Origin: an uncultured Candidatus Saccharibacteria bacterium
Lineage (GTDB): Bacteria; Patescibacteriota; Dojkabacteria; SC72
Assembly: GCA_964655705.1 (NCBI GenBank)
Contig: CAZZPP010000001.1
Location: 90,534 to 154,533, forward strand
Direction of reading: 5' to 3'
Length of the DNA stretch: 64,000 nucleotides
Below, in pieces: positions 5,321 to 55,963 of this stretch. The stretch's first letter is position 1. The number at the start of each line of letters is the position of its first letter. The notes beneath the pieces are model-generated. The model saw only the letters and a list, made by a program, of their open reading frames with translations. It was not told the DNA's origin and did not search any database. Position numbers and translations under genes: made by a program.

Positions 5321-5374
5321 GGGTATGGGTGTGATATAATTCAGGGAAATATATTAATTTTTTCTTTTGTATAT

Positions 5375-29928: not shown

Positions 29929-29931
29929 AAA

Positions 29932-34523: not shown

Positions 34524-34584
34524 TTAAGTGTATATTGAATATATAATTATAATATTTTATCTTATTTTGCATACGATTTAAACA

Positions 34585-35355
34585 ATGAAAATCTCAATAA
34601 TAACAACAAACTATAATACAGATAAATATCTAGAGAGAACTATTAAAAGTGTTCTTAATCAAAAAGGAGACTTCGAATTAGAATATATCATTACAGATGG
34701 TAAATCTACTGATAAAAGTTTAGATATTATTAAAAAATATAAAGATAAAATAAAATATATATCTGAGAAAGATAAAGGACAATCAGATGGAATAAATAAA
34801 GGATTAAGAATGGCTACAGGAGATATATTAGCATTTCTTAATTCAGATGATATATATACTGAAGGAGCATTAGATAAGGTAGTAAGATATTTTAAAGATA
34901 ATCCAGATTGTATGTGGTTAACAGGGTATTGTAGGATAATAGATGAGAATGATAATGAGATTAAGAAATATGTAACAAAGTATAAGAATAGGAAGTTAGA
35001 GAGATTTACTCTCGAGCAGTTATTGATTGAAAATTGTATCTCTCAACCAGCAACTTTTTGGAGAAGAGAACTACTAGATGAGGTGGGATATATTGATGAG
35101 AGTTTGCATTTTTCTATGGATCAAGATTTATGGGCTAGGTTTGCTAAGAAGTATGAATTAAATTTAATTAGAGATTATCTAGCAGAGTTTAGATTTACTT
35201 CTGATACTAAAACAGGGTCTAGCATAGAAAAGACGCTTGCTGAATCAGGAATTATTGCAGAAAGATATTCAGGAAAGAAAGGGGTATTAATCTTACAGAA
35301 CCTTAGCAATTTGAAAAGAATATTGGTTTACCGATATTTGCCTAAAAAGGATTAG
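34585..35355 (+). CDS. glycosyltransferase family 2
   Basis: MKISIITTNYNTDKYLERTIKSVLNQ ... ITDGKSTDKS. Confidence 0.75.
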   Translation: MKISIITTNYNTDKYLERTIKSVLNQKGDFELEYIITDGKSTDKSLDIIKKYKDKIKYISEKDKGQSDGINKGLRMATGDILAFLNSDDIYTEGALDKVVRYFKDNPDCMWLTGYCRIIDENDNEIKKYVTKYKNRKLERFTLEQLLIENCISQPATFWRRELLDEVGYIDESLHFSMDQDLWARFAKKYELNLIRDYLAEFRFTSDTKTGSSIEKTLAESGIIAERYSGKKGVLILQNLSNLKRILVYRYLPKKD

Positions 35356-35364
35356 AAAGAGCAT

Positions 35365-35697
35365 CTATTTTGTATCAGTTTTGTCTTTAGCTATTTTTCT
35401 AACTAACTTAGTTATTTCTTTTTCAAGTTTGTTTATTTTTTCACTTTGTCTAAATATATAATAGAAGAGAAAGATAATTGAGAGATATACTAATACATCT
35501 ATACCTCTTCCTACACCAAATAGTTGTCCTACTTTATCTATTGTATTTGTTGGCAACCAAATAAATACTAGTGCTATTCCCCAGAATATTCCCCAAAAGA
35601 GTAATTTAAATAGTTGTGTTCTATCCTTAAGTACTTTGATTAAGAATTGAATTAACACTATTACTATTATCCCAGTAGCAATATATTGAATAATCAT
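35365..35697 (-). CDS. DUF2304-like small membrane protein (GT2-associated)
   Basis: 110 aa with 3 TM helices; in the same operon as, and overlapping, a DPM1-like GT2, the usual pairing for this family. Confidence 0.5.
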   Translation of the reverse strand: MIIQYIATGIIVIVLIQFLIKVLKDRTQLFKLLFWGIFWGIALVFIWLPTNTIDKVGQLFGVGRGIDVLVYLSIIFLFYYIFRQSEKINKLEKEITKLVRKIAKDKTDTK

Positions 35698-36383
35698 TAT
35701 TTAAGTTTAGATGATATTAATTTGAAAGCAATATTTATACTGTTAGATATGCTTTGTCCTTTAGCTTGTGAGTATTCTGTGTAATGTATTGTTACTGGTA
35801 CTTCTGTATATTTAAGATTTAATACCTTTATCTTATCTAATATCTCAGATGCATGTTCCATACGGTCATGTTGAAGATTTAATTTCTTAGCAGTTTCTGC
35901 TGTCATTACTCTTAATCCGTTATGCACATCTGTTAACCATATTTGAGAGAGTAGGTAGGTAAAGATTATCCCTATTTTTAAGACGATTTTCTTTTTTAAG
36001 GGAACATTATTTTCTTGTAGAAATCTAGAGCCTAATACTATGTCATATTTGCCTTCTATTAATGTATTTAACATATGATCTAAATCTTTAACATCGTGTT
36101 GTCCATCTGAATCAAAATGAACTATATATTTAGCACCCTTATCTAATGCTATCTCCATTCCTGTTTGTAATGCTGCTCCTTGTCCTCTATTAATAATATG
36201 TTTTGTTACAATTACATCTGTATTCTCTTTTACAACATTATATCCATTATCTTTGCTACCATCATCTACAACAACAATATTATTATATCCTGCTTCTTTT
36301 AAAGATTTAATTACATTGAGAATCATTTTAGAGTCGTTGTAGAGAGGGATTGTGATGTAGACGTTGGATTTGTTAGGTTTCAT
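35697..36383 (-). CDS. GT2 polyprenyl-phosphate glycosyltransferase (DPM1/GtrB-like catalytic domain)
   Basis: VYITIPLYND...IVVVDDGSKDN...DSDGQHD motifs. The ORF track starts at a TTG at 36422; the ATG at 36383 (MKPNKSNVYITIP) is preferred. Confidence 0.7.
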   Translation of the reverse strand: MKPNKSNVYITIPLYNDSKMILNVIKSLKEAGYNNIVVVDDGSKDNGYNVVKENTDVIVTKHIINRGQGAALQTGMEIALDKGAKYIVHFDSDGQHDVKDLDHMLNTLIEGKYDIVLGSRFLQENNVPLKKKIVLKIGIIFTYLLSQIWLTDVHNGLRVMTAETAKKLNLQHDRMEHASEILDKIKVLNLKYTEVPVTIHYTEYSQAKGQSISNSINIAFKLISSKLK

Positions 36384-36402
36384 ACCCAGAATTATTTTAT
36401 AA

Positions 36403-37440
36403 TTATTTAGACCCCGAAACAAATTTTTTTAGGAATCTTCTCAATTTAAAAGGAATTATTTTTCTTCGTAGATTCTTGAACCTAGAAAAATTTTCATTTT
36501 GTTGATTTATAGAAGGTTCTTTTGTCGGTTCTAATTCTACTTGAAGTGTATCCGAGAGTAAATCAAACATCTTTTTGCATGAAAGGATATCGTATATATT
36601 ATCTAATTTATTGTTGTTTTTAATAAATTGGAGTGTTATATAAGCATTTACGAGATTGTTTTCTTTTAAATTGGTCCCAAAACTATTTGCAAATTTTGTA
36701 TATAATGATTCGGAAGCTTGGGTTAATTGACTTTCAATGAATTGGTCTAGAATTAGCAACAATTCTATTTTTATACGAGTATTATTTGTTTTTGTCTCAT
36801 TGTTTTGATGCCATCTGTAATAGGTAAGAATTTTTTCGCATCGGTCTATTCTTGCATTTGGTATAAATTTTAGCCATAACTCTAAATCGTAAGCAGTAAT
36901 TAAATTCTCATTAAATAATCCATATTTATCAAAAAAAGATTTTTTAATCATTACGGATGATTTGCAAAAATAATTTTTCTCAATAAATCTAAAAATGATA
37001 TCTCGATCGAAGATTTCTACAGGATTAAATAAATTCCAAGTTTGATTGAAATGTTCATCCGGTAAACCCAAACCGTTCTCATCAATCGCCTCGACTTTTG
37101 TAATTGAAATATCATACCCAGATTTAATTAGATCTATCTGATTTTGCAACTTTTCTGGGTGATATTTGTCATCAGCATCTAAAAAACAAATGTATTTACC
37201 TTGAGAGATACGAAGTCCTCTATTTAGGGTTTTTGAAACGCCACAATTTTTTTGGACAAGAAATGTAATTCTTTTGTCTTCATACTGTTTGATTAATCTA
37301 ATAGAATCGTCTTTAGATCCATCATCAATGATAATGAGTTCCCAATTTTTAAATGTCTGATTGATAACAGAATCTATTGCTCTCGTAATAAATCTGTCGT
37401 AATTGTAAGAAGGTATGATGATACTTATTTCCGGTTTCAT
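36403..37440 (-). CDS. glycosyltransferase family 2
   Basis: MKPEISIIIPSYNYDRFITRAIDSVINQTFKNWELIIIDDGSKDDS. Confidence 0.8.
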   Translation of the reverse strand: MKPEISIIIPSYNYDRFITRAIDSVINQTFKNWELIIIDDGSKDDSIRLIKQYEDKRITFLVQKNCGVSKTLNRGLRISQGKYICFLDADDKYHPEKLQNQIDLIKSGYDISITKVEAIDENGLGLPDEHFNQTWNLFNPVEIFDRDIIFRFIEKNYFCKSSVMIKKSFFDKYGLFNENLITAYDLELWLKFIPNARIDRCEKILTYYRWHQNNETKTNNTRIKIELLLILDQFIESQLTQASESLYTKFANSFGTNLKENNLVNAYITLQFIKNNNKLDNIYDILSCKKMFDLLSDTLQVELEPTKEPSINQQNENFSRFKNLRRKIIPFKLRRFLKKFVSGSK

Positions 37441-39567: not shown

Positions 39568-41805
39568 TTGATTCAAATGCTAGATTTATCAATAATCATA
39601 ATAGGGGGTAGTAATTATCAAGAAACATATAAGACTTTAAGAAATATAAAGATTTTAAGGGACACTTGTAGTAAGAAAGTCCGACTTCATCTACTTCTTA
39701 ACAAAAATGTTGAAGAGGTTAATAAGATTACTAAAAAAGCAAAGGAACTTATAAATGACATTGAGATTCCAGTTGACACATTTTCAGACTTTTCAGAAAT
39801 CAGAGAGTATGTTACAAAAACTTGCGAGGAGAAGTACATCCTTTTTATTAATAGTGGGAATTATCTGTCACTAGATACTTTTAATAATTTCTATAAAATA
39901 TGTAATCTGTCTAATCATCAAATTTATCTTACTGAGAAAAAAGTTTTTTTTGAAAAAGAATACTATACAGAAGATAATATAGCATCGTCAGATACTTCCT
40001 TTAGCAATTTTTCATTTCTTATCCAAGATCTGTGGAATTTAAATCCATGGGGTAGTACCTTTTTCATTTCCAAAAAGGATCTTGAGGGTATTGAGCTTTC
40101 TAAAATCAACCATGAATTTAAAGTTGGGACCGAGATTATCACTTTTTTTTGCAATTGTCTAAGTAATGGGATGGAGTTTGTTATTATTCCCCAAACAATA
40201 TCATTTTACAGAAAAAATATGCAGTCACTTCGTTTGTCTAGTGATTATGTTACTCCCAAGATTGAGTTGTTTGCACCAGAGAACTTCGAAATTAAGAATC
40301 AGAGAATTATATCAGAGGTTTCAGAAAAGAACAGAAACCATTTAAAGAAAACACTACACCATTGGTTCCCCAAATTCTGTATTTTGTTCTCAAACTTTAA
40401 GAAAAAGTATGAATTTATTTTAGCGAAAATTAATGATAAAGAAGATAAGAGAAGCATTATTAAAAAGATTCCATCAGTGATATTTCCCAATTTATATCTT
40501 AAGATTTTTGTTATTAAAGAAAGAATTAAAAAGTTATTTGGAGAAAAAAACGAAAAACAATTCTATCCCTTATGGTTTGTGAACGAATGGAAGTTAATGA
40601 ACAACATAGAGCCAATTCTTTTCCCGCCAGAGAACAGAATATATGAAAAGGTGTTGTTAACAAATATCAACTTAGACAACTATTTGCAAGAAATGTACTC
40701 GCACTTCCCTTCTAATATAGATTATCTTATTGTTTGCCCTTGGTTGAAAAGAGGTGGTGCAGATAAATTGGCAATAAATTTGATAAAAGGAATTAAAAAA
40801 ATCTTTCCAAATAAAGAGGTTGGTTTATTACTTACAGAAAAAACTAATTCAGAAATAAAATCTATGTTACCTGAAGATATATATTTCTTTGATTTTGGGA
40901 ATAGTTTTCCAGACATAAATGCCCCTGAAAGAGAGGCTTTGCTGTTAAGGTTTATCATACAAAATAGTCCAAAGAAAACAATTAATATTAATTCACATTC
41001 TTTGTTTAATATCCTTCTTAAATATAGTAAACCTATATCGCTGTACACAAAAATATACTGTTTTTGTTTTAGTCCAAGTAAAGCTCCCAATGGTCAATTG
41101 ACAGGGTTTTCCTTTGATTTTATCCCATTTATCATAGATGATTTAGAAACGGTTTTTACAGATAACACTAATATCATCAATGTCTTAGTAGAGATGTTTG
41201 GTTTGGATAAGAATAAGTTCTCTGTTATTTATCAACCGGTAGAGATTGAAAAATATATTGAAAAGACATATATAGACAAGAGAGAATGGAATGTTCTATG
41301 GGCAAGTAGAATAGATTATGAAAAACTTCCAAGTGTTTTAGAAAAGATAATTGCAAAATCGTCAGGGAAAAATCTAGTATTTCATATATATGGAAACTCA
41401 CTTTTAGACAAGCAATTTCCTTTGAAAAGATTTAATAAATATAAACATGCTTTTACATATGGTGCCTATGTAGGTGGATTATCAGGTATTGATTATTCAA
41501 AATATGATATATTTCTTTATACATCAGAATTTGATGGTATGCCTAACACAGTTTTAGAAGCACTATCTTTGGGTATTCCAGTTATATCGTCAAATGTTGG
41601 AGGTATTAAAGAGGTGATAGAGGATGGAGTTACAGGTTTCCTGGTAGATGATATATATGATGAAACGAAGTATTTTGATTTATTAGAAAGAGTAATAGAG
41701 AGGAAAAATGATTTGAATAGGATAAGGTTAAATGCAAGTAAGAAACTTAATAATCAACATTCTTGGGATGTTTATCTTGACAGACTAAAGGAAATATTAG
41801 CATAA
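39568..41805 (+). CDS. bimodular glycosyltransferase (N-terminal GT-A-like region + C-terminal GT4/GT-B domain)
   Basis: C-terminal EFDGMPNTVLEALSLGIPVISSNVGGIKEVIEDGVTGFLVDD is the GT4 E-x7-E region; the N-terminal half is GT2-like. Confidence 0.7.
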   Translation: MIQMLDLSIIIIGGSNYQETYKTLRNIKILRDTCSKKVRLHLLLNKNVEEVNKITKKAKELINDIEIPVDTFSDFSEIREYVTKTCEEKYILFINSGNYLSLDTFNNFYKICNLSNHQIYLTEKKVFFEKEYYTEDNIASSDTSFSNFSFLIQDLWNLNPWGSTFFISKKDLEGIELSKINHEFKVGTEIITFFCNCLSNGMEFVIIPQTISFYRKNMQSLRLSSDYVTPKIELFAPENFEIKNQRIISEVSEKNRNHLKKTLHHWFPKFCILFSNFKKKYEFILAKINDKEDKRSIIKKIPSVIFPNLYLKIFVIKERIKKLFGEKNEKQFYPLWFVNEWKLMNNIEPILFPPENRIYEKVLLTNINLDNYLQEMYSHFPSNIDYLIVCPWLKRGGADKLAINLIKGIKKIFPNKEVGLLLTEKTNSEIKSMLPEDIYFFDFGNSFPDINAPEREALLLRFIIQNSPKKTININSHSLFNILLKYSKPISLYTKIYCFCFSPSKAPNGQLTGFSFDFIPFIIDDLETVFTDNTNIINVLVEMFGLDKNKFSVIYQPVEIEKYIEKTYIDKREWNVLWASRIDYEKLPSVLEKIIAKSSGKNLVFHIYGNSLLDKQFPLKRFNKYKHAFTYGAYVGGLSGIDYSKYDIFLYTSEFDGMPNTVLEALSLGIPVISSNVGGIKEVIEDGVTGFLVDDIYDETKYFDLLERVIERKNDLNRIRLNASKKLNNQHSWDVYLDRLKEILA

Positions 41806-41811
41806 CAAAAT

Positions 41812-42450
41812 ATGAAAGAAAAAGAATTCTCAAAATTTTTGATTAATAATTCTCCAAATACTGATTTTGTGTCAAAACTGAAAATAAAATATAGACCATA
41901 TATTTGTCCTTTTGACACTATATTAGATATGGTTGGAGATCAAAAAAAAGTTTTTGATATTGGATGTGGATCAGGAATGTTTCTATCTCTATATGCCGAG
42001 TATAAAAGACCGATTAAAATTGGAGGAGTAGAAGTTGATGAGAAGCTGATTGCTAATAGTAAAATATTACTTCAAAAATATAAGGTACCAAAGTATCTTG
42101 AAGTATATGATGGAAAAGAAATCCCAAATGAAATATCTGATTATAATTTTATAACTCTGATTGATGTTTTACATCATATCTCCCCAACAGATCAAAAGAA
42201 TTTTCTTGAAAGAATAATTGAAAAAATGTCGAAAGGAAGTATTTTAATAGTTAAGGATATAGATAGAGACAGCCCATTAGTAATTTTTAATAAAATTCAT
42301 GACTTAATATTTTCCAAGGAAGTGAGTTATGAATTGAGTTACAAAGAGTTGAAATCAGATATTTCTAAAAAAGGTTTAGAAATAGTGAAGAGTTTTAAGA
42401 AAACAAAGATAGTGTATCCCCATTACTTTTTATTAATAAAGAAGATATGA
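41812..42450 (+). CDS. class I SAM-dependent methyltransferase
   Basis: Motif I VFDIGCGSGMF and the following acidic loop. Confidence 0.7.
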   Translation: MKEKEFSKFLINNSPNTDFVSKLKIKYRPYICPFDTILDMVGDQKKVFDIGCGSGMFLSLYAEYKRPIKIGGVEVDEKLIANSKILLQKYKVPKYLEVYDGKEIPNEISDYNFITLIDVLHHISPTDQKNFLERIIEKMSKGSILIVKDIDRDSPLVIFNKIHDLIFSKEVSYELSYKELKSDISKKGLEIVKSFKKTKIVYPHYFLLIKKI

Positions 42451-42881
42451 GAAAAGAATATACATTCTTAAGATATTTTCTTGTTGGTATATCTACCGTT
42501 GCAATAGATTATTTTTTGTATTTAATCCTAATAAAATTTCAATTAGAAGAGGTTTTTGCAAATGTTATATCTGTTTTTGTGTCAGTAATATTTAATTTTT
42601 TAATGCAAAATTATTGGTCTTTTAGGGCAGGGGGGGCAGAAAAAATAAAGAAAATAACAAAATATATAGTTATAACTACATTTAATTATTTTTTTAATGT
42701 CATTGCATTTTATTTTCTATTTGAAGAGTTTTTATTTGAAAAATTATTTAACAATATATGTAGTTTAAATATGAGTTTCCTGCCAGAAGGAGTAATGACC
42801 AAATTTTTTATTGCAGGAATAATTATGTGTTGGAACTATTTTATCTTTAAGTATTGGGTATTTAAAAAAAATGAACCTTAA
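42447..42881 (+). CDS. GtrA-family small membrane protein (polyprenyl-P-sugar translocation)
   Basis: 144 aa with 4 TM helices and a conserved FLRYFLVGISTVAIDYFLY N-terminus. Confidence 0.7.
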   Translation: MRKEYTFLRYFLVGISTVAIDYFLYLILIKFQLEEVFANVISVFVSVIFNFLMQNYWSFRAGGAEKIKKITKYIVITTFNYFFNVIAFYFLFEEFLFEKLFNNICSLNMSFLPEGVMTKFFIAGIIMCWNYFIFKYWVFKKNEP

Positions 42882-43416
42882 ATTTTATACAAAATTTTGG
42901 TTAAAAACTGATAAAAAAGAGATCCCAACACAAGTAATTGATTCTATATATGAAATAGATTGGAAAAATGTTCAAAAACGTTTTAAGGTAATTGTTTTTG
43001 ATTTAGATGATACACTTGGAGAACATGGGGGAGAAATATCTAGTGTAAGTTTAAATCTGCTTTCAAGACTAAATAAAGATGGTTTAAGAGTAGTTATTTT
43101 ATCAAATTGTCGTACCTCAAGAGAAAGTATATTAAGAAATAGCCTAAAGAATTTGAAGGTTGATATTATTAGTAATTCTGATAAGCCAAACCCGGATAAT
43201 TATTGCAAGGTTATTAAGAAGTTAAAGGCATTACCTTCTGAATGTATAGTAGTTGGTGATAGGGTTGCGACGGATCTTTTTGGAGCATTTATATGTGATA
43301 TACCAGAGAGAATTTTAGTCAAACCATATTCAGAAGTGTTTGGGGGTAAAAAACCTGGAGTTATCTATAGAACTGCTAGGATGATTGAAAACTTCTGTTC
43401 TAAAGATAAAGAATAA
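42871..43416 (+). CDS. HAD-superfamily phosphatase
   Basis: Motif I VIVFDLDDTLGEH; downstream SN and GD motifs. Confidence 0.7.
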   Translation: MNLKFYTKFWLKTDKKEIPTQVIDSIYEIDWKNVQKRFKVIVFDLDDTLGEHGGEISSVSLNLLSRLNKDGLRVVILSNCRTSRESILRNSLKNLKVDIISNSDKPNPDNYCKVIKKLKALPSECIVVGDRVATDLFGAFICDIPERILVKPYSEVFGGKKPGVIYRTARMIENFCSKDKE

Positions 43417-44290
43417 TAGCAAAAGTAATAATCCACCCTAAGATACTAATTTGAATTATTCTATCTTTAAAGAGAGTATCTGTGGGGGAGCCACTTTTTT
43501 CAAAAGTAATGGATAATTGTAAATATCTTAATATCCCCATTAACACAAATATCGAAGTTATAAATATATTATCTGATTTGTATCTTATTATTGTTTGTTC
43601 TGAAAGTGTATACATTAAATATGATACTAATGTTACGGCAGAGGTTATTACTAAGATAGAATCGACAAATTGAAGGTTATATCCATCTACAGACTTTCTC
43701 ATGCTCCTTCCGGTTTTTTGAGCTATTAATAAATCATCTCGTCTTTTCGCAAATCCAAGAAATAGTGCAAGTAAAAAGGTCATAATAATAATCCAAGAAT
43801 TAATTCTTATATCACCGGATGCACCTCCAATAAGTATTCTAATAACGAAACCAAGAGCAATAGTAAACACATCAATAATACCAATATGCTTAATCCAGAA
43901 AGTATATAGAATATTAATTGCAGTATAAGTTAAAAATAGGTATAAAACGTCTAGGTTGTTAAAGAATAGGGCAATTAAAATTCCAGAGACAAAGAAGATA
44001 AAGGAAATAGTTTGAGCTTCTTTTACAGATACTTTACCAGAGGCTAAAGGTCGATTTTTCTTTTCAGGATGTTTTTTATCATTTTTGATATCAACGATAT
44101 CATTTAATATATATATTGAACTTGAAACTAGACAAAAGGCGAAAAAAGCAATTAAGTTCTTTTCAAGAATATTAATATCTAGGAACTTAAGGCCAAAAAA
44201 TGTAGGTAGGAAAATAAAGAGATTCTTAACATAATGTTTAATTCTCACTAGTTTCATAAAATCTTTAAGTTCCATCACAGAGAATATCAA
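43400..44290 (-). CDS. decaprenyl-phosphate phosphoribosyltransferase (UbiA family, Rv3806c-like)
   Basis: Match to mycobacterial DPPR synthase along the whole protein: IKHYVKNLFIFLP vs QWVKNVLVLAAP; YILNDIVDIKNDKKHPEKKNRPLASG vs YLVNDVRDVEADREHPTKRFRPIAAG; AKRRDDLLIAQKTGRSMRKS vs GKRYAELHLAERTGAAIRKS. Confidence 0.8.
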   Translation of the reverse strand: MIFSVMELKDFMKLVRIKHYVKNLFIFLPTFFGLKFLDINILEKNLIAFFAFCLVSSSIYILNDIVDIKNDKKHPEKKNRPLASGKVSVKEAQTISFIFFVSGILIALFFNNLDVLYLFLTYTAINILYTFWIKHIGIIDVFTIALGFVIRILIGGASGDIRINSWIIIMTFLLALFLGFAKRRDDLLIAQKTGRSMRKSVDGYNLQFVDSILVITSAVTLVSYLMYTLSEQTIIRYKSDNIFITSIFVLMGILRYLQLSITFEKSGSPTDTLFKDRIIQISILGWIITFAIILYL

Positions 44291-44351
44291 ATATTGCTTT
44301 CTTCTTCAACCTAAAATATAATTTTGTATCTAATCAGATTGTTTTTATCAT

Positions 44352-46046
44352 ATGACAATAAAAAACTTTTTTAGCGACAGGAAAAATATAGCTGATATAC
44401 TACTATTTTTAACTTCTCATATATTATTACTGTCATTTTTTATTTTACTTATTACTAGTGTTTTTTTCTTTCTTGGTGGTGTAATAAATGTTTTTATTTT
44501 TCCGCTATCTTTTCTATTAAGTAGTATTATTTGTTCTATTTATTACAAAGGATTTTTTAAAAAAGGTTCAGTTATTAATATTATTATAGCGACACTTCTC
44601 TTGGTTCTTATTTACGTCACTTCATATTTTTTAGCTGACAATTTTTATGATATATCTTGGGATGGACAAGAGTATCATCAGGAAATAATTATTCAGCTTT
44701 CTGAAAACGAATGGAATCCTATTAAAGAAGATGTTCCTGAATCCGTAGATGAATATATGAAACCATGGGTGAAGCATTACCCTAAGAGCTCAGAGATATT
44801 AGCATCGTCCGTATTTGAAATTACGAATTTTATAGAATCTGGGAAAATTTTTAACCTACTTTTTATATTTACATCCTTCTTTCTCATTTTGGGACTTATT
44901 TTGAAATATTCTAGTATTAGCTTATTTATAGCAATATTATTATCTTTTTCTAGTGCTTTTAGTCCCGTATCAGTATATCAATCTCTTTCATATTATGTAG
45001 ATGGTCAAGTGGCTTCTATGGCGCTGATACTCTTTGGCTTAATTTTCCTTATTATCAAATCAAAAAATGAAAAACACCTTATTCTTTGGATAAGTGCAAT
45101 GGTACTTTTAATCAATCTTAAATTTACAGGGGTAGCATTTACAGGTTTGGCTTGTATATGTTTGCTTGGTTTCTCATTATTTCAAGAGAACAAAAGATTT
45201 ATAAAAAAGATATTCTTAGCAGAGATTATTGGAGTAGTGATAGCTATTTTTCTTGTTGGCTTTAGTCCATATATTGAAAACACATATGAAAAAGGACATC
45301 CATTTTATCCATTGGGTGGAAGGGAGGCAAGAGATATCACCTCTGGAATTACACCGATTGAGATAGTTGAATTAAAAGGGGTTAGAAGGTTTGTTGTATC
45401 ATACTTTACATTAACTAATGACGGGGAAAGAATATATCCGAGATTACCATTTATACCGAACCCAAATTTAGGACAATTCCCAAGAACTTATGGAGATGCT
45501 CGTGTAAGTGGAGAGGGTTTGTTCTTTATGGAAATCTTCATTATTGCAGCACTATTATTTTTTAAGATACTACTTGTAGATAGAGATAAGAAAAGAAATT
45601 TTTATCTGTTGATTTCCCTATTCTTCCTGATTGTAGGAGTAGTAGTTGTTCCTGACAATTGGTGGGCGAGATATGTTCCTTTTCTTTATTTGATACCTTG
45701 GACTATTTTAGTGTTTTCTATTTGGGATAAAAAGAAAATGTGTTTTCTTTCACAATTATTACTTTTTGTAATGCTTCTAAATAGTTGTACAGAAATTGTA
45801 AAGTATATTAAACCTCAAATTTATTCAACACAAGTAATAAATTATGTAATAGAGGAAGCAAATTCTTCATCTGATTCAGTTGTAGTATTCTCTCCATCTG
45901 GATTCTTTTATAACAATATTGAGAGATTTGTGGAGAATGGGATAGATTATGAAATAGTTAAAGATGAAACTAAATGGTTGTCTATTGAGGGAGAATTATA
46001 TACATTCCCAAATTCAGATTTATTTATTAAAATATTTAAGGAATAA
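44352..46046 (+). CDS. large polytopic membrane protein, candidate GT-C glycosyltransferase
   Basis: 564 aa with ~12 TM helices and a C-terminal soluble domain, divergent from the DPPR synthase gene. The fold assignment is inferred from context only. Confidence 0.4.
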   Translation: MTIKNFFSDRKNIADILLFLTSHILLLSFFILLITSVFFFLGGVINVFIFPLSFLLSSIICSIYYKGFFKKGSVINIIIATLLLVLIYVTSYFLADNFYDISWDGQEYHQEIIIQLSENEWNPIKEDVPESVDEYMKPWVKHYPKSSEILASSVFEITNFIESGKIFNLLFIFTSFFLILGLILKYSSISLFIAILLSFSSAFSPVSVYQSLSYYVDGQVASMALILFGLIFLIIKSKNEKHLILWISAMVLLINLKFTGVAFTGLACICLLGFSLFQENKRFIKKIFLAEIIGVVIAIFLVGFSPYIENTYEKGHPFYPLGGREARDITSGITPIEIVELKGVRRFVVSYFTLTNDGERIYPRLPFIPNPNLGQFPRTYGDARVSGEGLFFMEIFIIAALLFFKILLVDRDKKRNFYLLISLFFLIVGVVVVPDNWWARYVPFLYLIPWTILVFSIWDKKKMCFLSQLLLFVMLLNSCTEIVKYIKPQIYSTQVINYVIEEANSSSDSVVVFSPSGFFYNNIERFVENGIDYEIVKDETKWLSIEGELYTFPNSDLFIKIFKE

Positions 46047-46085: not shown

Positions 46086-46916
46086 TTATCGCATTTGATC
46101 AGTAACATACTCAGTATTCATTATTCTCCAGTAGTCAGGGCCATACTTTTTACCTAGAACTAAGTCCATATTTTTTTGTGCCAATCTTTCTCTTTTGTTT
46201 GATGTCATATTCATTCTTTTCATCTTATACCCAACATTTGTTTCTTTACGAACTTGAATGCTCTCGTCAATCCAAATTGTTCTCCCTGATTTTCTTGCCA
46301 AATAGCAGGTTTCTACATCAATACCCCATGCATATGTGAGTTCTTTATCAAATCTCCCAATGCTATTAAACCAATCTGCTCTATAAAGAGAACATATATT
46401 ATCAATAAAGAAAGTTTGCCTAAATTGCACTTTAGTACTCCTATTTTTTAAATGATTCCAATATGTTGTAGAATCTTCTGTTAATGATGCATGAACTCCA
46501 ATTGCATTGTCATCTTGTAATAATTGTTTAATCATTGAAGAAACAGGTTTCTTTGTTTGTTTAACGAATTCTGTGCTAGTAATTAAGAACATATATGCAA
46601 AATAGTTAAAATATTTTTTATCTGATTGCGCTAATCCTTTTAACTATCCATTTGTTGTTTGGACATTGTTTTTAATAAACACATTAGTTTTCTTTGAGGG
46701 TTTTGTTAAATCAGAGCCATTATCTATTAGATAAATATCGATTGGCCAGGTTTCATTCTTTTTCAAGTAATCATAAAGAGCTTCAGCTCTTTCATTCATA
46801 TTGTAATTTACAATAAATACTGCAACTTTTTTTGTTTTCCAATTGATTAATTTTTTAATCCGATCTCTTGACCCCATAAGTGTGTAAAGAATAGAAATAT
46901 TATAATTATTACACAA
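46086..46916 (-). pseudogene. GT2 glycosyltransferase interrupted by an in-frame TAG (46644..46646)
   Basis: The 90-aa ORF (VAVFIVNYNMNE...LIDNGSD, the GT2 N-terminal motif) and the 168-aa ORF are in the same frame (both start at coordinate ≡ 2 mod 3), separated by a single TAG. The conceptual readthrough gives a normal ~276-aa GT2. Confidence 0.6.
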
Positions 46917-47067: not shown

Positions 47068-48081
47068 ATGAAAATCCTAGTAACAGGTGGTGCAGGCTTT
47101 ATTGGCTCCTACTTTATCAAATATTGGCTATCTAAATATCCTAATGACAGTATTACTAATTTAGATAAATTAACATACTGTGGAAATTTAGAAAACCTTA
47201 AAGAAGTAGAAAACAACCCCAATTACAAATTTGTAAAAGGAGACATATGTGACAAAGAATTAGTAATGGAAATAACAAAAGGAATAGATCTCATTGTACA
47301 CTTCGCTGCAGAATCCCATGTAGACAGAAGTATAGAAGGACCACAAGAATTTGTAAAAACAAATGTAGAAGGAACACTAAACCTACTAGAAGCAGCCCTT
47401 GCAAATGGAAATATTAGATTCCATCACGTATCAACAGATGAAGTATTTGGAGAACTACCACTAGATGACCCTAACGCTAAGTTTAGTGAAACAACCCCAT
47501 ACTCACCTAAAAGTGTATACTCAGCATCTAAAGCTAGCTCAGACCACCTAGTAAGAGCATATTACCATACACACAAACTACCCATTACAATATCCAACTG
47601 TTCTAACAACTACGGACCTAACCAATTCCCAGAAAAATTAATACCCCTAGCAATAACAAGAGCAATAATGGATGAAGAAATACCAGTATATGGGCAAGGA
47701 ACCCAAGTAAGAGACTGGATACACGTAGAAGACCATTGTAAGGGTATAGAGATGTGTATTCAAAAGGGAGAGATAGGACAAACATATCTATTTGGAGGTA
47801 ATGGAGAGAAACAAAATATATGGATAATTAAAAAGATCCTCGAATATCTAGACAAACCCCAATCCCTAATTGTACATGTAGGAGATAGAAAGGGACATGA
47901 CCTAAGATATGCAATAGATTTTAGTAAATCAAAACAAGAGTTAGGATATATTCCTACTAAATCTGTAGACCAATGGCTAAAAGATACAGTACAGTGGTAT
48001 GTAAACAACCAAGATTGGTGGAAACCACTTAAACCACAAGCAGATATACAAGCAGAGAGATACCTAGAAAAGAGAATATAA
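47068..48081 (+). CDS. rmlB: dTDP-glucose 4,6-dehydratase
   Basis: MKILVTGGAGFIGS Rossmann motif; catalytic HVSTDEVFG and YSASKASSDHLVRAY (YxxxK). Confidence 0.9.
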   Translation: MKILVTGGAGFIGSYFIKYWLSKYPNDSITNLDKLTYCGNLENLKEVENNPNYKFVKGDICDKELVMEITKGIDLIVHFAAESHVDRSIEGPQEFVKTNVEGTLNLLEAALANGNIRFHHVSTDEVFGELPLDDPNAKFSETTPYSPKSVYSASKASSDHLVRAYYHTHKLPITISNCSNNYGPNQFPEKLIPLAITRAIMDEEIPVYGQGTQVRDWIHVEDHCKGIEMCIQKGEIGQTYLFGGNGEKQNIWIIKKILEYLDKPQSLIVHVGDRKGHDLRYAIDFSKSKQELGYIPTKSVDQWLKDTVQWYVNNQDWWKPLKPQADIQAERYLEKRI

Positions 48082-48221
48082 ATATATAAAATCCATAAAT
48101 TTGGCCTAATTTGTGGAATCAATTCCTTGAATTAGGCCTAAAATATACAGTTAAATGTTGAAAAAGGCTGAAATGATTGTAAATACCGGATAAATTGGAA
48201 TGTGTATATAGTATTAAAGTG

Positions 48222-48250
48222 TTGACAATCGTACAAATTAGGCGTAATAT
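48222..48250 (+). promoter_or_regulatory. near-consensus sigma70 promoter TTGACA-N17-TAATAT upstream of the AAA ATPase gene
   Basis: Hexamers and 17-nt spacer read directly. Flanked by repeated CGTACAAATTA(G/A)GC motifs (48230.. and 48262..) and an upstream inverted repeat GGCCTAATT...AATTAGGCC (~48100..48142). Confidence 0.55.
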
Positions 48251-48282
48251 GTACGATATAACGTACAAATTAAGCATAAAAT

Positions 48283-49419
48283 ATGCAGTATAAAATTAAA
48301 AGAACAATAGAAGGATCAATCAGAAACGACTTTTTTAAAGGGAAAGTTATAATCATAGCAGGACCTAGACAAGTTGGTAAAACTACCCTTGTTGAACATC
48401 TTCTTAAGAATTCTACAAATGTAATTACATTTAATGGTGATAGCAGGAAAGATCGTAACTCTCTTGCTAAAAATGATTTTGAGTTTATGAATAAGCTTAT
48501 CGGTGAAAATGAGATTGTATTTATTGACGAAGCTCAAAAGGTAGAAGAAATCGGAAATACTCTTAAACTATTAGTAGATAAGTATAAAGAAGAGAAACAA
48601 ATAATAGCTACAGGCTCTTCTAGTCTTAATCTCTTATCTAATACTTCAGAACCTTTAACAGGCAGGAAGTTTGTATACGAATTATATCCATTATCAGTTG
48701 GTGAGATATATTCTCAAAGACATCCTCTTGATTTAGATAAGGAATTAGAGAACTTGTTAATATATGGTTCGTACCCAGATATATATAATGGGAGTCTTAA
48801 ACTAAAGGAGAATCGTCTTGTTGAAATTTCCAGAAGTTATCTATACAAAGATATCTTAGAATTGGAAGAGGTAAGGAATTCCTCTTCGATTGACAAGCTT
48901 CTTTCGGCATTAGCTTTGCAAATTGGCTCAGAAGTATCACTTAGGGAATTAAGTAACCTTTTAAATTTACATATTGGTACAGTAGAAAGATATATTGATC
49001 TATTAGAAAAAAACTACGTAATCTTTAGATTGCCACCATATTACACTAATGAAAGAAAAGTACTTTCTAAACAAAACAAAATATATTTCTATGACTTAGG
49101 TATTAGAAATGCGTTAATAAATAATTTTAATCCATTAAGTAAAAGAAATGATAGAGGGGCTCTATGGGAAAATTTTCTCATTATTGAAAGGATGAAATTA
49201 AATGCATATACCAATAGATATGTCTCTAAATTCTTCTGGAGAACATATGATGGAGCTGAGATTGACTATATCGAAAAATATGCAGATTCTCTAGATGGTT
49301 TTGAATTTAAATGGAGTAAGGTTAAGAATGCTCCTAAAAGTTGGCTTGAATATACCAATGCCAAATATGAGTTAATAAATATGGACAATTTTAAGAAGTT
49401 TTTAAAGATATCTAAATAA
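48283..49419 (+). CDS. AAA+ ATPase with DUF4143 domain (COG1373 family)
   Basis: Walker A IIIAGPRQVGKTTL, Walker B VFIDEAQK, and the C-terminal DUF4143-like region. Confidence 0.8.
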   Translation: MQYKIKRTIEGSIRNDFFKGKVIIIAGPRQVGKTTLVEHLLKNSTNVITFNGDSRKDRNSLAKNDFEFMNKLIGENEIVFIDEAQKVEEIGNTLKLLVDKYKEEKQIIATGSSSLNLLSNTSEPLTGRKFVYELYPLSVGEIYSQRHPLDLDKELENLLIYGSYPDIYNGSLKLKENRLVEISRSYLYKDILELEEVRNSSSIDKLLSALALQIGSEVSLRELSNLLNLHIGTVERYIDLLEKNYVIFRLPPYYTNERKVLSKQNKIYFYDLGIRNALINNFNPLSKRNDRGALWENFLIIERMKLNAYTNRYVSKFFWRTYDGAEIDYIEKYADSLDGFEFKWSKVKNAPKSWLEYTNAKYELINMDNFKKFLKISK

Positions 49420-49436
49420 TATTTAAAAATACAAAT

Positions 49437-50525
49437 ATGAAAGCACTCATACTAGCAGGAGGAAGAGGAACTAGACTAAGACCACTTACTCATACAAAAA
49501 ATAAACACGCTCTACCAATAGGGAATAGACCAATGATAGAGAGAATAATTAGAGATGCAATAGATTTAGATATTAAAGATATCATAATAAATATCAATAA
49601 AGGAGATAAAGAAATACCAGAACTACTTGGAGATGGAAGCAAATTTGGAAAAAATATTAAAATACACTACATAGAACAACCAGAACCCAATGGAATGATG
49701 TATCCCATTAAATTAGCACAAAAACTCATAGGAGATGATGACTTTCTTTTCTCTGCAGGAGACAATATCCTAACAGGAGGACTTAAACAACATTACAAAG
49801 ATTTTAAAAAGAAAAAATCAGATGCACATGTATTAGTAGTCAAAAGACCAGACTATCAAAACTTTGGAGTAGCTGTAATGAAAGGAGACAAGATAGTAAA
49901 GACTGTAGAAAAACCACAAGAATATGTAAGTGATTTAGTACTCTCTGCTATTTACTTCTTTACTCCAGCAGTATTTAAAGCATTTAAATATGCTAAACCA
50001 ATAGATCCAAAGGGTACTGGAAAACCAGAGTACTACCCACCAGTAATAAATAACTGGTTGATAGAAAATGGATATACCTTTACAGCATCAGAGGTAACAG
50101 GATGGTGGAAAGATACAGGAGCTCCTGAAGACATATTACTAGCTAACAGACTAATACTAGAAAAAGAAGTACTTACTATTGAAGATGGAGATATTACAGA
50201 TAGTCAAATAGAGGGAAATGTAGAAATTAAAAAGGGTGCTAAAGTAACAAACAGTGTACTAAGAGGACCCATATCCATAGCAGAAGATGTAGTAGTAGAG
50301 AATGCATATATTGGTCCTTTTACATCTATAGGGGCAGGAAGTATTGTAAAAAATGTAGAGATAGAAAACAGTATACTAATGGGTAATTGTAATGTACATG
50401 ATATAGATAGAAGATTAGATAGTTGTTTAATTGGGTGGGATGCAGAAGTAACAAGTAAGAATGGTCATCCTAAAGCAGATAGCATGTATATTGGAGATAA
50501 CTCCATAGTTCAACTTAGTAAATAG
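49437..50525 (+). CDS. rmlA: glucose-1-phosphate thymidylyltransferase, long form with C-terminal left-handed beta-helix
   Basis: MKALILAGGRGTRLRPLT nucleotidyltransferase motif; ~120-aa C-terminal hexapeptide-repeat extension as in archaeal-type long RmlA/sugar-1-P nucleotidyltransferases. Confidence 0.75.
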   Translation: MKALILAGGRGTRLRPLTHTKNKHALPIGNRPMIERIIRDAIDLDIKDIIININKGDKEIPELLGDGSKFGKNIKIHYIEQPEPNGMMYPIKLAQKLIGDDDFLFSAGDNILTGGLKQHYKDFKKKKSDAHVLVVKRPDYQNFGVAVMKGDKIVKTVEKPQEYVSDLVLSAIYFFTPAVFKAFKYAKPIDPKGTGKPEYYPPVINNWLIENGYTFTASEVTGWWKDTGAPEDILLANRLILEKEVLTIEDGDITDSQIEGNVEIKKGAKVTNSVLRGPISIAEDVVVENAYIGPFTSIGAGSIVKNVEIENSILMGNCNVHDIDRRLDSCLIGWDAEVTSKNGHPKADSMYIGDNSIVQLSK

Positions 50526-50626
50526 TAAATACAAAGAAAAAAAGTGGGAGGCGTCGCTCAGCACCTCGTAAGTGCAGGGTCGTATTCTCCCTCATGATTA
50601 CTCCAATTATATCACGGTTACTTTTT

Positions 50627-50635
50627 TGATATAAT
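50627..50635 (+). promoter_or_regulatory. extended -10 promoter element TGaTATAAT upstream of rmlC
   Basis: Read directly, 28 nt upstream of the rmlC ATG; no good -35. Confidence 0.3.
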
Positions 50636-50663
50636 GCTCATAGTAATTTTTTAACTCTCTTGC

Positions 50664-51221
50664 ATGGAATTCGAAAAAAACATCAATGGTATAGAAGGAT
50701 TAGTAGTGATTACCCCTAAAGTATTTGGCGATGAGAGAGGTTTTTTTAAAGAAACATTCAATGAAAGAGAATTTAAAGAAAATGGAATAGATATCCACTG
50801 GATACAAGCTAATCATTCAAGATCTAGTAAAGGAGTATTAAGAGGATTACATTGGCAAAAGCAACCTCATGCACAAGATAAATTAGTAAGAGTAACAACA
50901 GGAAGAGTATTAGATGTAGCAGTAGATATTAGAAAGGATTCTCCCACATTTGGTAAGTATGCAATGGTTGAATTAACAGAAGATAATCATAAGATGTTTT
51001 TACTACCTGCAGGATTTGCTCATGGTTTTGTAGCATTAAGTGATGTTGTAGATTTTGAATATAAGGTGGGGACAAGTACATACAACAAAGAAAGTGATAG
51101 GGGGATAATATACAATGATCCAGATATAGGTATACAGTGGGGAGTAGATAATCCTTTAGTATCTGAAAAAGATGGGAGTGCTCCATTACTTAAAGATATA
51201 GATCCTTCTGACCTTTTTTAA
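50664..51221 (+). CDS. rmlC: dTDP-4-dehydrorhamnose 3,5-epimerase
   Basis: Cupin fold with RGFFKETFN and the HWQKQP/His-Asp catalytic region. Confidence 0.9.
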   Translation: MEFEKNINGIEGLVVITPKVFGDERGFFKETFNEREFKENGIDIHWIQANHSRSSKGVLRGLHWQKQPHAQDKLVRVTTGRVLDVAVDIRKDSPTFGKYAMVELTEDNHKMFLLPAGFAHGFVALSDVVDFEYKVGTSTYNKESDRGIIYNDPDIGIQWGVDNPLVSEKDGSAPLLKDIDPSDLF

Positions 51222-51238
51222 TTTAAATATTTTTAATA

Positions 51239-52087
51239 ATGAGTAAGAAAGTATTAGTATTTGGTTCAAATGGAATGTTAGGAAATTACCTTTCTAAATT
51301 ACTAGAAAGTGAAGGGTATGAAGTTCTAAGAAATGATATATCCAAAGGAGGAATAGATATAACAGAGCAACAACAGGTAAGAGACTTGATATTTGAATCA
51401 GGCGTAGAGCATGTAGTAAATTGCGCTGCATATACTAATGTAAATAAGGCAGAGGGAGAGGATAGGGAGATAGCATTTAAAGTTAACGCTAATGCTCCAA
51501 AATATATGGCTCAGGCATGTAATGAGATGGGGATACAATTTGTACATGTATCTACAGATTACATATTTGGAGAAAACCGAAAAGAAGGATATCCAGAGGA
51601 ATACAAAAATTTTAAACCTCTTAGTGTATATGGAGAATCTAAACTACAAGGAGAGTTTAATGTATTAGAAGAGAAACCAAACTCATACATATTTAGAACC
51701 TCATGGCTATTTGGACCAAATGCAACTAACTTTATAGATAAAATATCTAAGTATGCGAAAGAGTTACCAGAACTAAAAGTTGTAACAGATGAGGTTGGAT
51801 GCCCAACATATGTTAAAGATTTAAGTAAAGGTATACTTCTTGCAGTTGAAGAAAAGATTGAACCAGGGATATACCATTTATGTAGTAAGGATCATCTTTC
51901 TAGATATGAATTTGCACAAGAGATTCTAAGTATGCAAGAAATAGATACTCCAATTAAGGAGTGTAAACTAGATGATTTCGAAAGAGCAGCACAAGTTCCA
52001 CATTACTCTGTACTACTCAATACTAAACTTCCGGAAGCAAGAAGTTACAAAGATATGTTAAGTGATTATTTTTCAGAAAAAGAGTAA
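51239..52087 (+). CDS. rmlD: dTDP-4-dehydrorhamnose reductase
   Basis: VLVFGSNGMLG Rossmann motif; YGESK catalytic Tyr-Lys; ~280 aa. Confidence 0.85.
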   Translation: MSKKVLVFGSNGMLGNYLSKLLESEGYEVLRNDISKGGIDITEQQQVRDLIFESGVEHVVNCAAYTNVNKAEGEDREIAFKVNANAPKYMAQACNEMGIQFVHVSTDYIFGENRKEGYPEEYKNFKPLSVYGESKLQGEFNVLEEKPNSYIFRTSWLFGPNATNFIDKISKYAKELPELKVVTDEVGCPTYVKDLSKGILLAVEEKIEPGIYHLCSKDHLSRYEFAQEILSMQEIDTPIKECKLDDFERAAQVPHYSVLLNTKLPEARSYKDMLSDYFSEKE

Positions 52088-54820: not shown

Positions 54821-54837
54821 ATTTTTATGATATTCAG

Positions 54838-55944: not shown

Positions 55945-55963
55945 ATTTTTATTAGTTTCTATC

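Follow-up and report, generated by a model that had tools for sequence, protein, structure and literature searches.

A predicted lipid-linked pentofuranose donor and transfer module in a surface-polysaccharide locus of a Dojkabacteria-like bacterium

We describe a group of adjoining genes in a 64-kb stretch of DNA (hereafter, the window) from contig CAZZPP010000001.1 of assembly GCA_964655705.1 (Dojkabacteria; SC72). The genes encode a GtrA-family membrane protein, a HAD-superfamily phosphatase, a UbiA-family protein and a 564-residue membrane protein with the GT-C fold of glycosyltransferases (GTs) (Table 1). We consider it quite probable, judging from sequence and predicted structure, that they form a module for the synthesis of a polyprenyl-phosphate-linked pentofuranose donor and transfer of the sugar, located within a large surface-polysaccharide locus of a Dojkabacteria-like bacterium of the candidate phyla radiation (CPR). 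A sequence-only reading of this DNA had proposed a polyprenyl-phospho-ribofuranose donor and extracytoplasmic pentofuranosylation, and the proposal is well supported bioinformatically by family and fold assignments, active-site conservation and linkage across phyla. The four open reading frames (ORFs) on which it was built are present in the ORF list at the coordinates it gave, and its domain calls were right.

Under the model suggested by these genes, the UbiA-type enzyme would act at the cytoplasmic face of the membrane and transfer 5-phosphoribosyl from phosphoribosyl pyrophosphate (PRPP) to polyprenyl phosphate, and the soluble HAD-IIIA phosphatase would strip the 5-phosphate to yield polyprenyl-phospho-beta-D-ribofuranose. 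The sugar would remain ribofuranose because no epimerase is encoded nearby. The GtrA-family protein would then aid the passage of the lipid-linked sugar to the outer leaflet, where the 13-helix GT-C protein would move the pentofuranose onto an already exported glycan. The acceptor would most likely be the rhamnose-containing polymer, dependent on an ATP-binding cassette (ABC) transporter, that the surrounding genes appear to encode, and an inverting enzyme, as in Citrobacter, would form an alpha linkage. The carrier lipid is unlikely to be decaprenyl.

Synthase, phosphatase and GtrA protein

The UbiA-family protein matches Pfam UbiA (PF01040, E 2e-26), and its top NCBIfam matches are three models of decaprenyl-phosphate phosphoribosyltransferase (DPPRS), with scores of 225, 193 and 159 bits (E 1e-66 to 1e-46). 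Models of the other UbiA subfamilies (heme O, ubiquinone/UbiA, menaquinone/MqnP, ChlG and GGGP) reach at most 56 bits, about 170 bits under DPPRS; the NCBIfam model of HAD-UbiA fusions scores 178 bits, on the UbiA half. In a sequence search of the PDB, the best match is the mycobacterial enzyme Rv3806c (8j8j, E 1.2e-37), aligned over the full length (residues 7-286 against 18-296) at 25.8% identity, and the next matches are DGGGP synthase (E 1e-7) and UbiA (E 1e-4). The full-length alignment with Rv3806c that the sequence-only reading had reported is thus borne out, and the comparison with profiles of UbiA subfamilies that it had called for gives no placement with the quinone, heme or chlorophyll prenyltransferases.

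The active site tells the same story at the level of individual residues. In the cryo-electron microscopy structure of Rv3806c, N73 and D77 are ligands of Mg2+, the pyrophosphate is bound by a cluster of lysines and arginines (R22, K87, R90, K143 and K208) together with Y138, and K28, Y70, Q135 and Y157 contact the ribose and its 5-phosphate, the latter contacts not being conserved in prenyl-transferring UbiA enzymes (PMC10994848). Eleven of 13 residues of the PRPP/Mg site are identical in the window protein, namely R22, K28, Y70, N73, D77, D81, K87, R90, Y138, K143 and K208 in Rv3806c numbering, which correspond to R11, K17, Y55, N58, D62, D66, K72, R75, Y124, K129 and K194 of the 291-residue protein. 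At the remaining two positions, the replacement of Q135 by N121 retains the amide (asparagine occupies this position in 119 of 121 family members), and that of Y157 by F143 is conservative; phenylalanine is found at the latter position in some mycobacteria as well (PMC10994848). The Mg site falls within an NDxxDxxxD motif. Conservation among 120 homologues extends to all of these site residues, and those of the Mg site and of the lysine/arginine cluster are nearly invariant. These results support the grouping of the UbiA protein with the Rv3806c-type phosphoribosyltransferases rather than with aromatic or heme prenyltransferases, and predict a PRPP-dependent activity.

The synthase has more than 7,000 matches among database proteins, and its closest named homologues (52-59% identity) come from metagenome-assembled genomes (MAGs) of Candidatus Dojkabacteria and are called decaprenyl-phosphate phosphoribosyltransferase by NCBI (PGAP). 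The same name has been assigned by NCBI or JGI to more distant homologues in Nitrospirae, Saprospiraceae, Sulfurovum and Bacillota, and plasmids of Bacteroidota, Alphaproteobacteria and haloarchaea carry genes so annotated. The Rv3806c-like enzyme family is not limited to actinobacteria. Judging by the closest named homologues, a Dojkabacteria-like CPR bacterium is the probable source of the window.

The assignment of the HAD protein as a phosphatase, likewise made in the sequence-only reading, agrees with its Pfam matches (PF00702, E 3e-11; PF09419, E 9e-8; also PF13242) and with the intact catalytic motifs I to IV: DLDDT (44-48), S78-N, K105-P and GDRVATD (129-135), with the motif residues D44, D46, T48, S78, K105, G129-D130 and D135. 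The best NCBIfam match is TIGR01668 (YqeG-type HAD-IIIA) at 62 bits, under the cut-off of 89.1 bits. HADs of the PF12710 type show no cross-match with the window protein at E≤1e-3, nor does the fusion model NF006088 match it. An extracytoplasmic location of the phosphatase was considered and rejected: the N-terminus of the window protein is not hydrophobic and the protein has no signal or membrane segment, and where a HAD is fused to a GT-C protein, it lies on the cytoplasmic N-terminus.

The HAD and UbiA genes overlap by 17 nt (43400-43416), as the sequence-only reading had stated. The UbiA gene, however, lies on the minus strand, so that the overlap is a convergent one, between two 3' ends, and does not imply translational coupling. 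This convergent arrangement is kept in the loci L007, L008 and L010, where the GT-C proteins are only 36-37% identical to that of the window, and overall it is conserved over a range of 36-66% protein identity, usually together with GtrA and methyltransferase genes (L007, L008, L010 and the P0006 contig). The methyltransferase and GtrA genes overlap by 4 nt and the GtrA and HAD genes by 11 nt, whereas the UbiA and GT-C genes are divergent, with a 76-bp spacer between them. The UbiA ORF exists as described (43400..44290), but its probable start is 44275, not 44290, because the identical 291-residue database protein and related ones begin at MELKDF. A scan for promoters and terminators returned 46 sites against 51 expected and is uninformative in this AT-rich DNA.

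That a GtrA-family protein adjoins the synthase was stated correctly in the sequence-only reading: the match to PF04138 (E 2.3e-19; 70.1 bits against a cut-off of 26.1) spans residues 9-139 and the entire profile (1-117 of 117). In Dojkabacteria, Pedobacter and Parapedobacter loci, a GtrA gene lies beside the UbiA/GT-C pair; in Firmicutes, EamA/SMR-like genes take this place.

All Dojkabacteria-like versions of the module also carry a methyltransferase gene, dependent on S-adenosylmethionine (SAM), directly upstream of a GtrA (or acyltransferase) gene and the HAD gene; the order methyltransferase-GtrA-HAD is kept in L001-L003, L007 and L008, and methyltransferase-acyltransferase-HAD is found in the P0006 contig. 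By synteny, the methyltransferase of the window (41812-42450) is a possible accessory of the module, and its retention suggests that the product or the acceptor is methylated. Acyltransferases of the Acyl_transf_3 (OafA-like) family recur in related loci as well. One is fused to the N-terminus of the GT-C protein in P0243 (1062 aa), one stands in place of GtrA in the P0006 contig, and others adjoin the module in L006 and in the DprE1/E2 locus of Chondrinema (L086), which hints at coupled O-acylation.

The GT-C protein and its genomic partners

The 564-residue protein belongs to no Pfam family, and its only NCBIfam match is one of 23 bits to a 'putative glycosyltransferase' model. A PDB sequence search with the protein and with the profile of its family gave no meaningful match, the ArnT, Emb and Aft chains included, and the homologues are all annotated as 'hypothetical protein' and have no Pfam domains. 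The assignment comes from structure prediction. The AlphaFold2 model, built on an 84-sequence alignment, has a mean pLDDT of 93.4 and a pTM of 0.94, and the top 25 Foldseek matches in the PDB are all GT-C enzymes (PglB, ArnT, ALG12, STT3/OST, Pmt, ALG3, ALG9 and EmbA/B/C), the first 10 with a probability of 1.00 (E 6e-4 to 8e-3) and the remaining 15 with probabilities of 0.66-1.00. The helices of the model, combined with the positive-inside rule, yield a topology of 13 transmembrane (TM) helices with the N-terminus inside and a C-terminal alpha/beta domain outside. Hence, of the earlier description of this protein as a GT-C-like one with about 12 TM segments, the fold holds and the helix count is to be changed to 13. 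Seven invariant residues (D100, D104, Y108, N122, D217, K257 and R440) are all in predicted outside loops: an acidic loop of 64 residues contains D100 and D104, and other outside loops hold D217, K257 and R440. In the model, this is the placement expected of a GT-C site that would bind a polyprenyl-phosphate sugar.

The family is large. A HMMER scan of 1.84 billion cluster representatives detected at least 2,460 clusters, defined at 50% identity, at E≤1e-30 (3,645 at E≤1e-10), in Patescibacteria, Bacteroidota, Bacillota (Brevibacillus, Paenibacillus, Pelosinus), Cyanobacteria, Myxococcota and others. For the analysis of gene linkage, we scanned one genome per GTDB species with a pattern of the GT-C family taken from a 15-sequence subset, the 84-sequence alignment being too diverse for a pattern search, and searched the six-frame ORFs of the resulting 79 loci with profiles built here. 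These loci come from Dojkabacteria and other Patescibacteria, Bacteroidota (Pedobacter, Parapedobacter, Dyadobacter, Runella), Bacillota (Brevibacillus, Paenibacillus, Pelosinus, Solibacillus), Cyanobacteria, Myxococcota, Binatia and others.

An Rv3806c-like UbiA gene is located within 8 kb of the GT-C gene in 55-56 of the 79 loci and within 1.2 kb in 53, nearly always in the same direction. A phosphatase gene is present in 49 UbiA-positive loci (PAP2/DUF212 in 33, a HAD of the PF12710 type in 13 and a YqeG-like HAD, as in the window, in 3) compared to none of the 24 UbiA-negative ones, and 42 UbiA-positive loci encode a small transporter, EamA/SMR-like in 33 cases and GtrA in nine. Typical arrangements include GtrA-UbiA-GT-C-HAD(PF12710), in a single co-directional run, in Pedobacter (L017), UbiA-GT-C-HAD in a Bacteroidota MAG (L004), and, in Pelosinus (L023), an Fe-dependent alcohol dehydrogenase gene followed by UbiA-EamA-PAP2(DUF212)-GT-C-DUF4127. 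Moreover, HAD-GT-C fusions occur (P0174, P0165 and P0216), and a HAD-UbiA fusion adjoins a member of the GT-C family in Hyphomonas (L085). That the pair of synthase and GT-C stays constant while the phosphatase and the transporter are exchanged strongly supports the assignment of all four roles to a single pathway, and the exchange among phosphatases of three types and transporters of two types offers clean comparative evidence on its obligatory steps.

Several loci show further features. In Parapedobacter koreensis (L030, 2498-11533), a GtrA-UbiA pair is followed by four GT-C paralogues and one HAD gene; this suggests that several acceptor or linkage specificities are served by a single donor, and such an array accounts for the lack of a dedicated synthase in some GT-C loci. 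In loci of the Pelosinus, Brevibacillus and Paenibacillus type, the module is flanked by genes for an Fe-dependent alcohol dehydrogenase (nine loci) and a DUF4127 protein (10 loci), located at 5084-6232 and 9589-11169 of L023, and the dehydrogenase might serve as an alternative oxidoreductase that modifies the sugar. The GT-C gene is intact in the window and in a third assembly and is split (183 aa + 381 or 385 aa) in two metagenome assemblies with an identical synthase (L001, 1644-3337; L002, 1280-2973), where one T is lost from a run of five (GGGAAAATTTTTAACC) at window position 44848; the split could reflect on/off variation at the population level, decay or assembly error. Just downstream of the GT-C gene, two minus-strand ORFs (46086-46592, 168 aa, with a weak TIGR01556 match; 46644-46916, 90 aa) resemble the C- and N-terminal halves of one GT2 gene of the rhamnosyltransferase-like kind. 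They are called separately in L001-L003, too (168 + 77 aa), and may be a conserved split gene or a pseudogene.

With somewhat less than even confidence, we propose a broader generalization. The 564-residue protein would be the founder of a large GT-C family of polyprenyl-phospho-pentofuranose-dependent transferases, unseen by Pfam and PDB searches and distinct, by description, from CAZy family GT136, that work with an Rv3806c-like synthase and with the phosphatase and transporter of the respective lineage, and CPR bacteria such as Dojkabacteria would decorate a surface polymer with PRPP-derived ribofuranose. An unannotated GT-C family with such a synthase as the usual partner is a candidate for a new CAZy family and a source of candidate enzymes for glyco-engineering.

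The identity of the pentose, alternatives and the surrounding locus

To look for a DprE1/DprE2 epimerase pair, we used as probes an FAD enzyme encoded on a Chondrinema plasmid, which matches DprE1 in the PDB with E 3e-83, and its DprE2-like neighbor of the short-chain dehydrogenase/reductase (SDR) type. Neither had a phmmer match at E≤10 among all six-frame ORFs of at least 50 aa in the window, and beside the GT-C family in 85 loci they found nothing except two generic SDR matches. Pfam scans, which covered 48 of the 62 window ORFs of at least 130 aa, detected neither an FAD_binding_4 nor an adh_short protein; the SDR fold occurs in the window only in RmlB and RmlD, which are encoded beside RmlA and RmlC. 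The absence of a DprE1/DprE2 pair from the window, noted in the sequence-only reading, is confirmed by both approaches, and an arabinose donor made by window-encoded DprE1/E2 was rejected on the same phmmer result. On the basis of this absence within 64 kb, the donor most likely remains ribofuranose.

The source of the probes, the Bacteroidota plasmid NZ_CP111066.1 of Chondrinema litorale (L086, 5998-11863), carries a complete set of the arabinofuranose type, in the order DPPRS-DprE1-DprE2-acyltransferase-GT39, the DprE2 position being taken by the SDR and the last by GT39-family GT-C genes.

Several points weigh against the predicted module. The synthase narrowly misses the curated equivalog cut-offs (NF008977, 225.3 bits against 234, E 1e-66; NF008978, 192.6 against 207), and its gene lies on the strand opposite to those of its partners and is not co-transcribed with them. 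The HAD belongs to a subfamily different from that of the experimentally characterized PRP domain (PF12710 type) and resembles the housekeeping YqeG family, so that its proposed role derives from synteny in about five Dojkabacteria-like loci and from analogy. A flippase role of GtrA has no direct demonstration (PMC11127046). The TM-scores of the GT-C model to solved GT-C structures are modest, 0.25-0.46, and stay within 0.37-0.46 even for PglB, ArnT, ALG12 and STT3, for which Foldseek gives a probability of 1.00. The single-nucleotide deletion that splits the GT-C gene in two metagenome variants implies that the module may be dispensable. Finally, the window covers 64 kb of the genome, and this favors the alternative that the same module operates with an additional step, in which the lipid-linked ribose is epimerized to arabinofuranose or xylofuranose by an enzyme that is encoded elsewhere or belongs to an unrecognized family.

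Such an unseen epimerase appears unlikely but has precedents. Epimerases of the DprE1/E2 or SDR type are part of related systems, as in the DPPRS-DprE1-DprE2-GT39 set of the Chondrinema plasmid and in Rhizobium CCGE531; the GT-C can be promiscuous with respect to the donor, as Kelly et al. have shown (2024, PMC11127046); and in nine Firmicute loci, an Fe-dependent alcohol dehydrogenase is encoded within 4 kb of the GT-C, in L023 directly upstream of the UbiA gene. Yet the known systems cluster the epimerase with the synthase. Our searches recovered no DprE1- or DprE2-like ORF in the window at E≤10 and, beside the GT-C family in the 85 loci, only the two generic SDR matches, and the SDR-fold proteins of the window can be assigned to RmlB and RmlD.

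It is considerably less probable that the genes are merely neighbors in a crowded glycan locus, the HAD being a housekeeping YqeG-like protein and the GT-C using another donor, such as a polyprenyl-phospho-hexose made by the GT2 encoded at 35697-36422. Besides the YqeG-type best match of the HAD and the orientation of the synthase gene, this explanation can draw on the 24 of the 79 GT-C loci that have no UbiA gene within 8 kb and on a second candidate lipid-linked system (a GT2, a DUF2304 protein and a 653-residue protein) that lies 7 kb upstream. However, chance adjacency hardly accounts for the close spacing of the GT-C and a DPPRS-like gene (no more than 1.2 kb) in 53 of the 79 loci, the confinement of the phosphatase to UbiA-positive loci (49 of 55, against none of 24), the HAD-GT-C and HAD-UbiA fusions or the persistence of the HAD/UbiA overlap across proteins that are 36-66% identical. 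In addition, the HAD scores under the YqeG cut-off (62 against 89 bits), and the GT2/DUF2304 pair travels with the 653-residue protein, not with the 564-residue one. We give almost no credence to the idea that the UbiA ORF is a conventional prenyltransferase of quinone, heme O or archaeal-type lipid synthesis with no link to PRPP, which can invoke membership in the UbiA superfamily (PF01040) and an Asp-rich motif common to all its members but is effectively refuted, as is chlorophyll prenyltransferase identity, by the NCBIfam scores (at most 56 against 225 bits), by the PDB matches, by the retention of the lysine/arginine cluster and of the ribose and 5-phosphate contacts absent from prenyl-transferring UbiA enzymes (PMC10994848), and by the lack of quinone or heme genes nearby.

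A lipid-linked pentofuranose module, the reading we prefer, fits the setting of the genes. From about 28 kb on, the window is one large polysaccharide locus with at least 10 GT2 and GT4 genes (Table 1). The context of a polymer that depends on an ABC transporter and is decorated from the outside parallels that of the O antigen of C. youngae (PMC11127046). The dTDP-rhamnose cluster is interrupted by a gene for an AAA_14/DUF4143 ATPase (48283-49419, plus strand), between rmlB (47068-48081) and rmlA (49437-50525). The second candidate lipid-linked glycosylation set (32562-36422) may comprise a GtrB-like synthase and another large membrane transferase, and its trio of GT2, DUF2304 and 653-residue proteins is also encoded in the contig of a relative with 66% identity.

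Table 1. Positions of the module genes and of other features of the polysaccharide locus in the window
Feature	Position	Strand	Remarks
GT4 glycosyltransferase	39568-41805	+	Head of a tight plus-strand run (ORF list)
Class I SAM-dependent methyltransferase, 212 aa	41812-42450	+	PF13489 and PF13847, E ~1e-10
GtrA-family 4-helix membrane protein, 144 aa	42447-42881	+	PF04138 GtrA_DPMS_TM; candidate translocator or escort for the lipid-linked pentose
Soluble HAD-superfamily phosphatase (HAD-IIIA, YqeG/PGP-phosphatase-like), 181 aa	42871-43416	+	PF00702, PF09419; proposed polyprenyl-phospho-ribose-5-phosphate 5'-phosphatase
Predicted polyprenyl-phosphate 5-phosphoribosyltransferase (Rv3806c/PPPRS-type UbiA superfamily), 291 aa	43400-44275	-	PF01040; ORF list extends to TTG at 44290
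13-TM GT-C-fold glycosyltransferase, unannotated family, 564 aa	44352-46046	+	Proposed extracytoplasmic pentofuranosyltransferase
ABC-2 permease and ATPase	29155-30666
653-aa DUF7657/DUF7654 membrane protein	32562-34523	-
GT2	34585-35355	+
DUF2304 membrane protein	35365-35697	-
Small GT2	35697-36422	-
dTDP-rhamnose genes rmlB, rmlA, rmlC, rmlD	47068-52087
UDP-sugar dehydrogenase, oxidoreductase, acetyltransferase and aminotransferase set	53149-57289
UDP-GlcNAc 2-epimerase	61538-62602

Comparison with known systems

The sequence-only reading had presented ribofuranosylation as a mycobacterial-type chemistry unexpected in low-GC bacteria with reduced genomes. This part needs qualification: three-component pentofuranosylation systems have been published as widespread (Kelly et al. 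2024, PNAS, PMC11127046), and homologues of the synthase are named in many phyla, Dojkabacteria included. The idea put forward in that reading is essentially the pathway of Kelly et al. and is not new, and because this type of pathway is already established, our finding overturns nothing. The novel elements are the Dojkabacteria-like (CPR) host, the non-orthologous phosphatase and the large unannotated GT-C family; among the papers that could be searched, none connects Patescibacteria with an Rv3806c-type synthase. The window presents what looks like a complete kit for PRPP-based pentofuranosylation in an uncultivated CPR lineage with small genomes and a poorly known envelope chemistry, and predicts ribofuranose side chains on a rhamnose-containing polymer, which, if true, would be among the first concrete predictions on CPR surface glycan chemistry.

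The prototype is the system of Citrobacter youngae O1/O2 (PMC11127046). There, ORF15, in which an Rv3806c homologue is joined to a HAD of the PF12710 type, has been shown biochemically to make polyprenyl-phospho-ribofuranose from PRPP, the fused HAD of such enzymes taking off the 5-phosphate; ORF12, a GT-C and the founder of GT136, transfers the pentofuranose to the O antigen in the periplasm; ORF14 is the transporter; and ORF13, an optional component, can epimerize the donor to xylofuranose. The supporting information of the same study also notes systems in which the phosphatase is separate and systems in which the transporter is of the SMR type, and it accepts Rv3789/GtrA-type transporters (PMC11127046). 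The predicted window module would share with C. youngae the PRPP-dependent UbiA-type synthase, a HAD as the candidate phosphatase, the small transporter, the GT-C that acts from the outside and the order of the reactions, as well as the target, a finished polymer exported by an ABC transporter, and a ribofuranose product made without an epimerase. The differences concern the host, a CPR bacterium rather than a proteobacterium, and the individual parts. In the window, the phosphatase is encoded by a separate gene and is a YqeG/PGP-phosphatase-like HAD-IIIA, not a PRP of the PF12710 type, and the transporter candidate is of the GtrA family, whereas that of the prototype is ArnE/F-like. The window GT-C has 13 TM helices, conserved acidic residues that follow TM3 and, at its C-terminus, a small alpha/beta domain, compared to the 11 TM helices and carbohydrate-binding module of ORF12 by its published description. 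It has no sequence similarity to ArnT, the reported nearest solved relative of ORF12 (PMC11127046), or to any solved GT-C, and a comparison with the GT-C of Rhizobium CCGE531, one of the systems in the list of Kelly et al., shows no relation (hhalign probability 0.4%). Taken together with the differences in helix count and C-terminal domain, these comparisons speak indirectly against membership of the window protein in GT136.

The window module resembles the mycobacterial decaprenyl-phospho-arabinose pathway in three respects. Its synthase is homologous to Rv3806c over the full length and keeps the PRPP site, a GtrA-family protein (like Rv3789) is adjacent, and the predicted consumer has a GT-C fold, which also matches EmbA/B/C and AftD, at the fold level only. 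In contrast to that pathway, DprE1/E2 are absent from the 64-kb window, and arabinose is therefore not expected. The phosphatase is a HAD rather than a PAP2 (Rv3807c), the latter type being used by the Firmicute versions of the module (PAP2/DUF212). Furthermore, the GT-C is unrelated in sequence to Emb and Aft, the synthase is distant from Rv3806c, and the lipid is presumably not decaprenyl.

The D-arabinofuranosylation of group IV pilin in Pseudomonas aeruginosa, which involves PPPRS, homologues of DprE1/E2 and the GT-C TfpW, likewise couples a non-actinobacterial Rv3806c homologue to a GT-C (PMC11127046). It differs by its epimerase pair and its pilin target; the window has no such pair, and its module lies in the context of a polysaccharide locus. 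Similarity in overall design extends to Gtr-type O-antigen glucosylation of Shigella and Salmonella phages, a three-part system (GtrA, GtrB and a GtrV-type GT-C) in which, as we propose for the window, a GtrA protein and an extracytoplasmic GT-C act on a completed glycan. The donor synthase in those systems is a GT2 that uses UDP-glucose, whereas in the window this role would fall to a UbiA-type PRPP-dependent enzyme together with a phosphatase.

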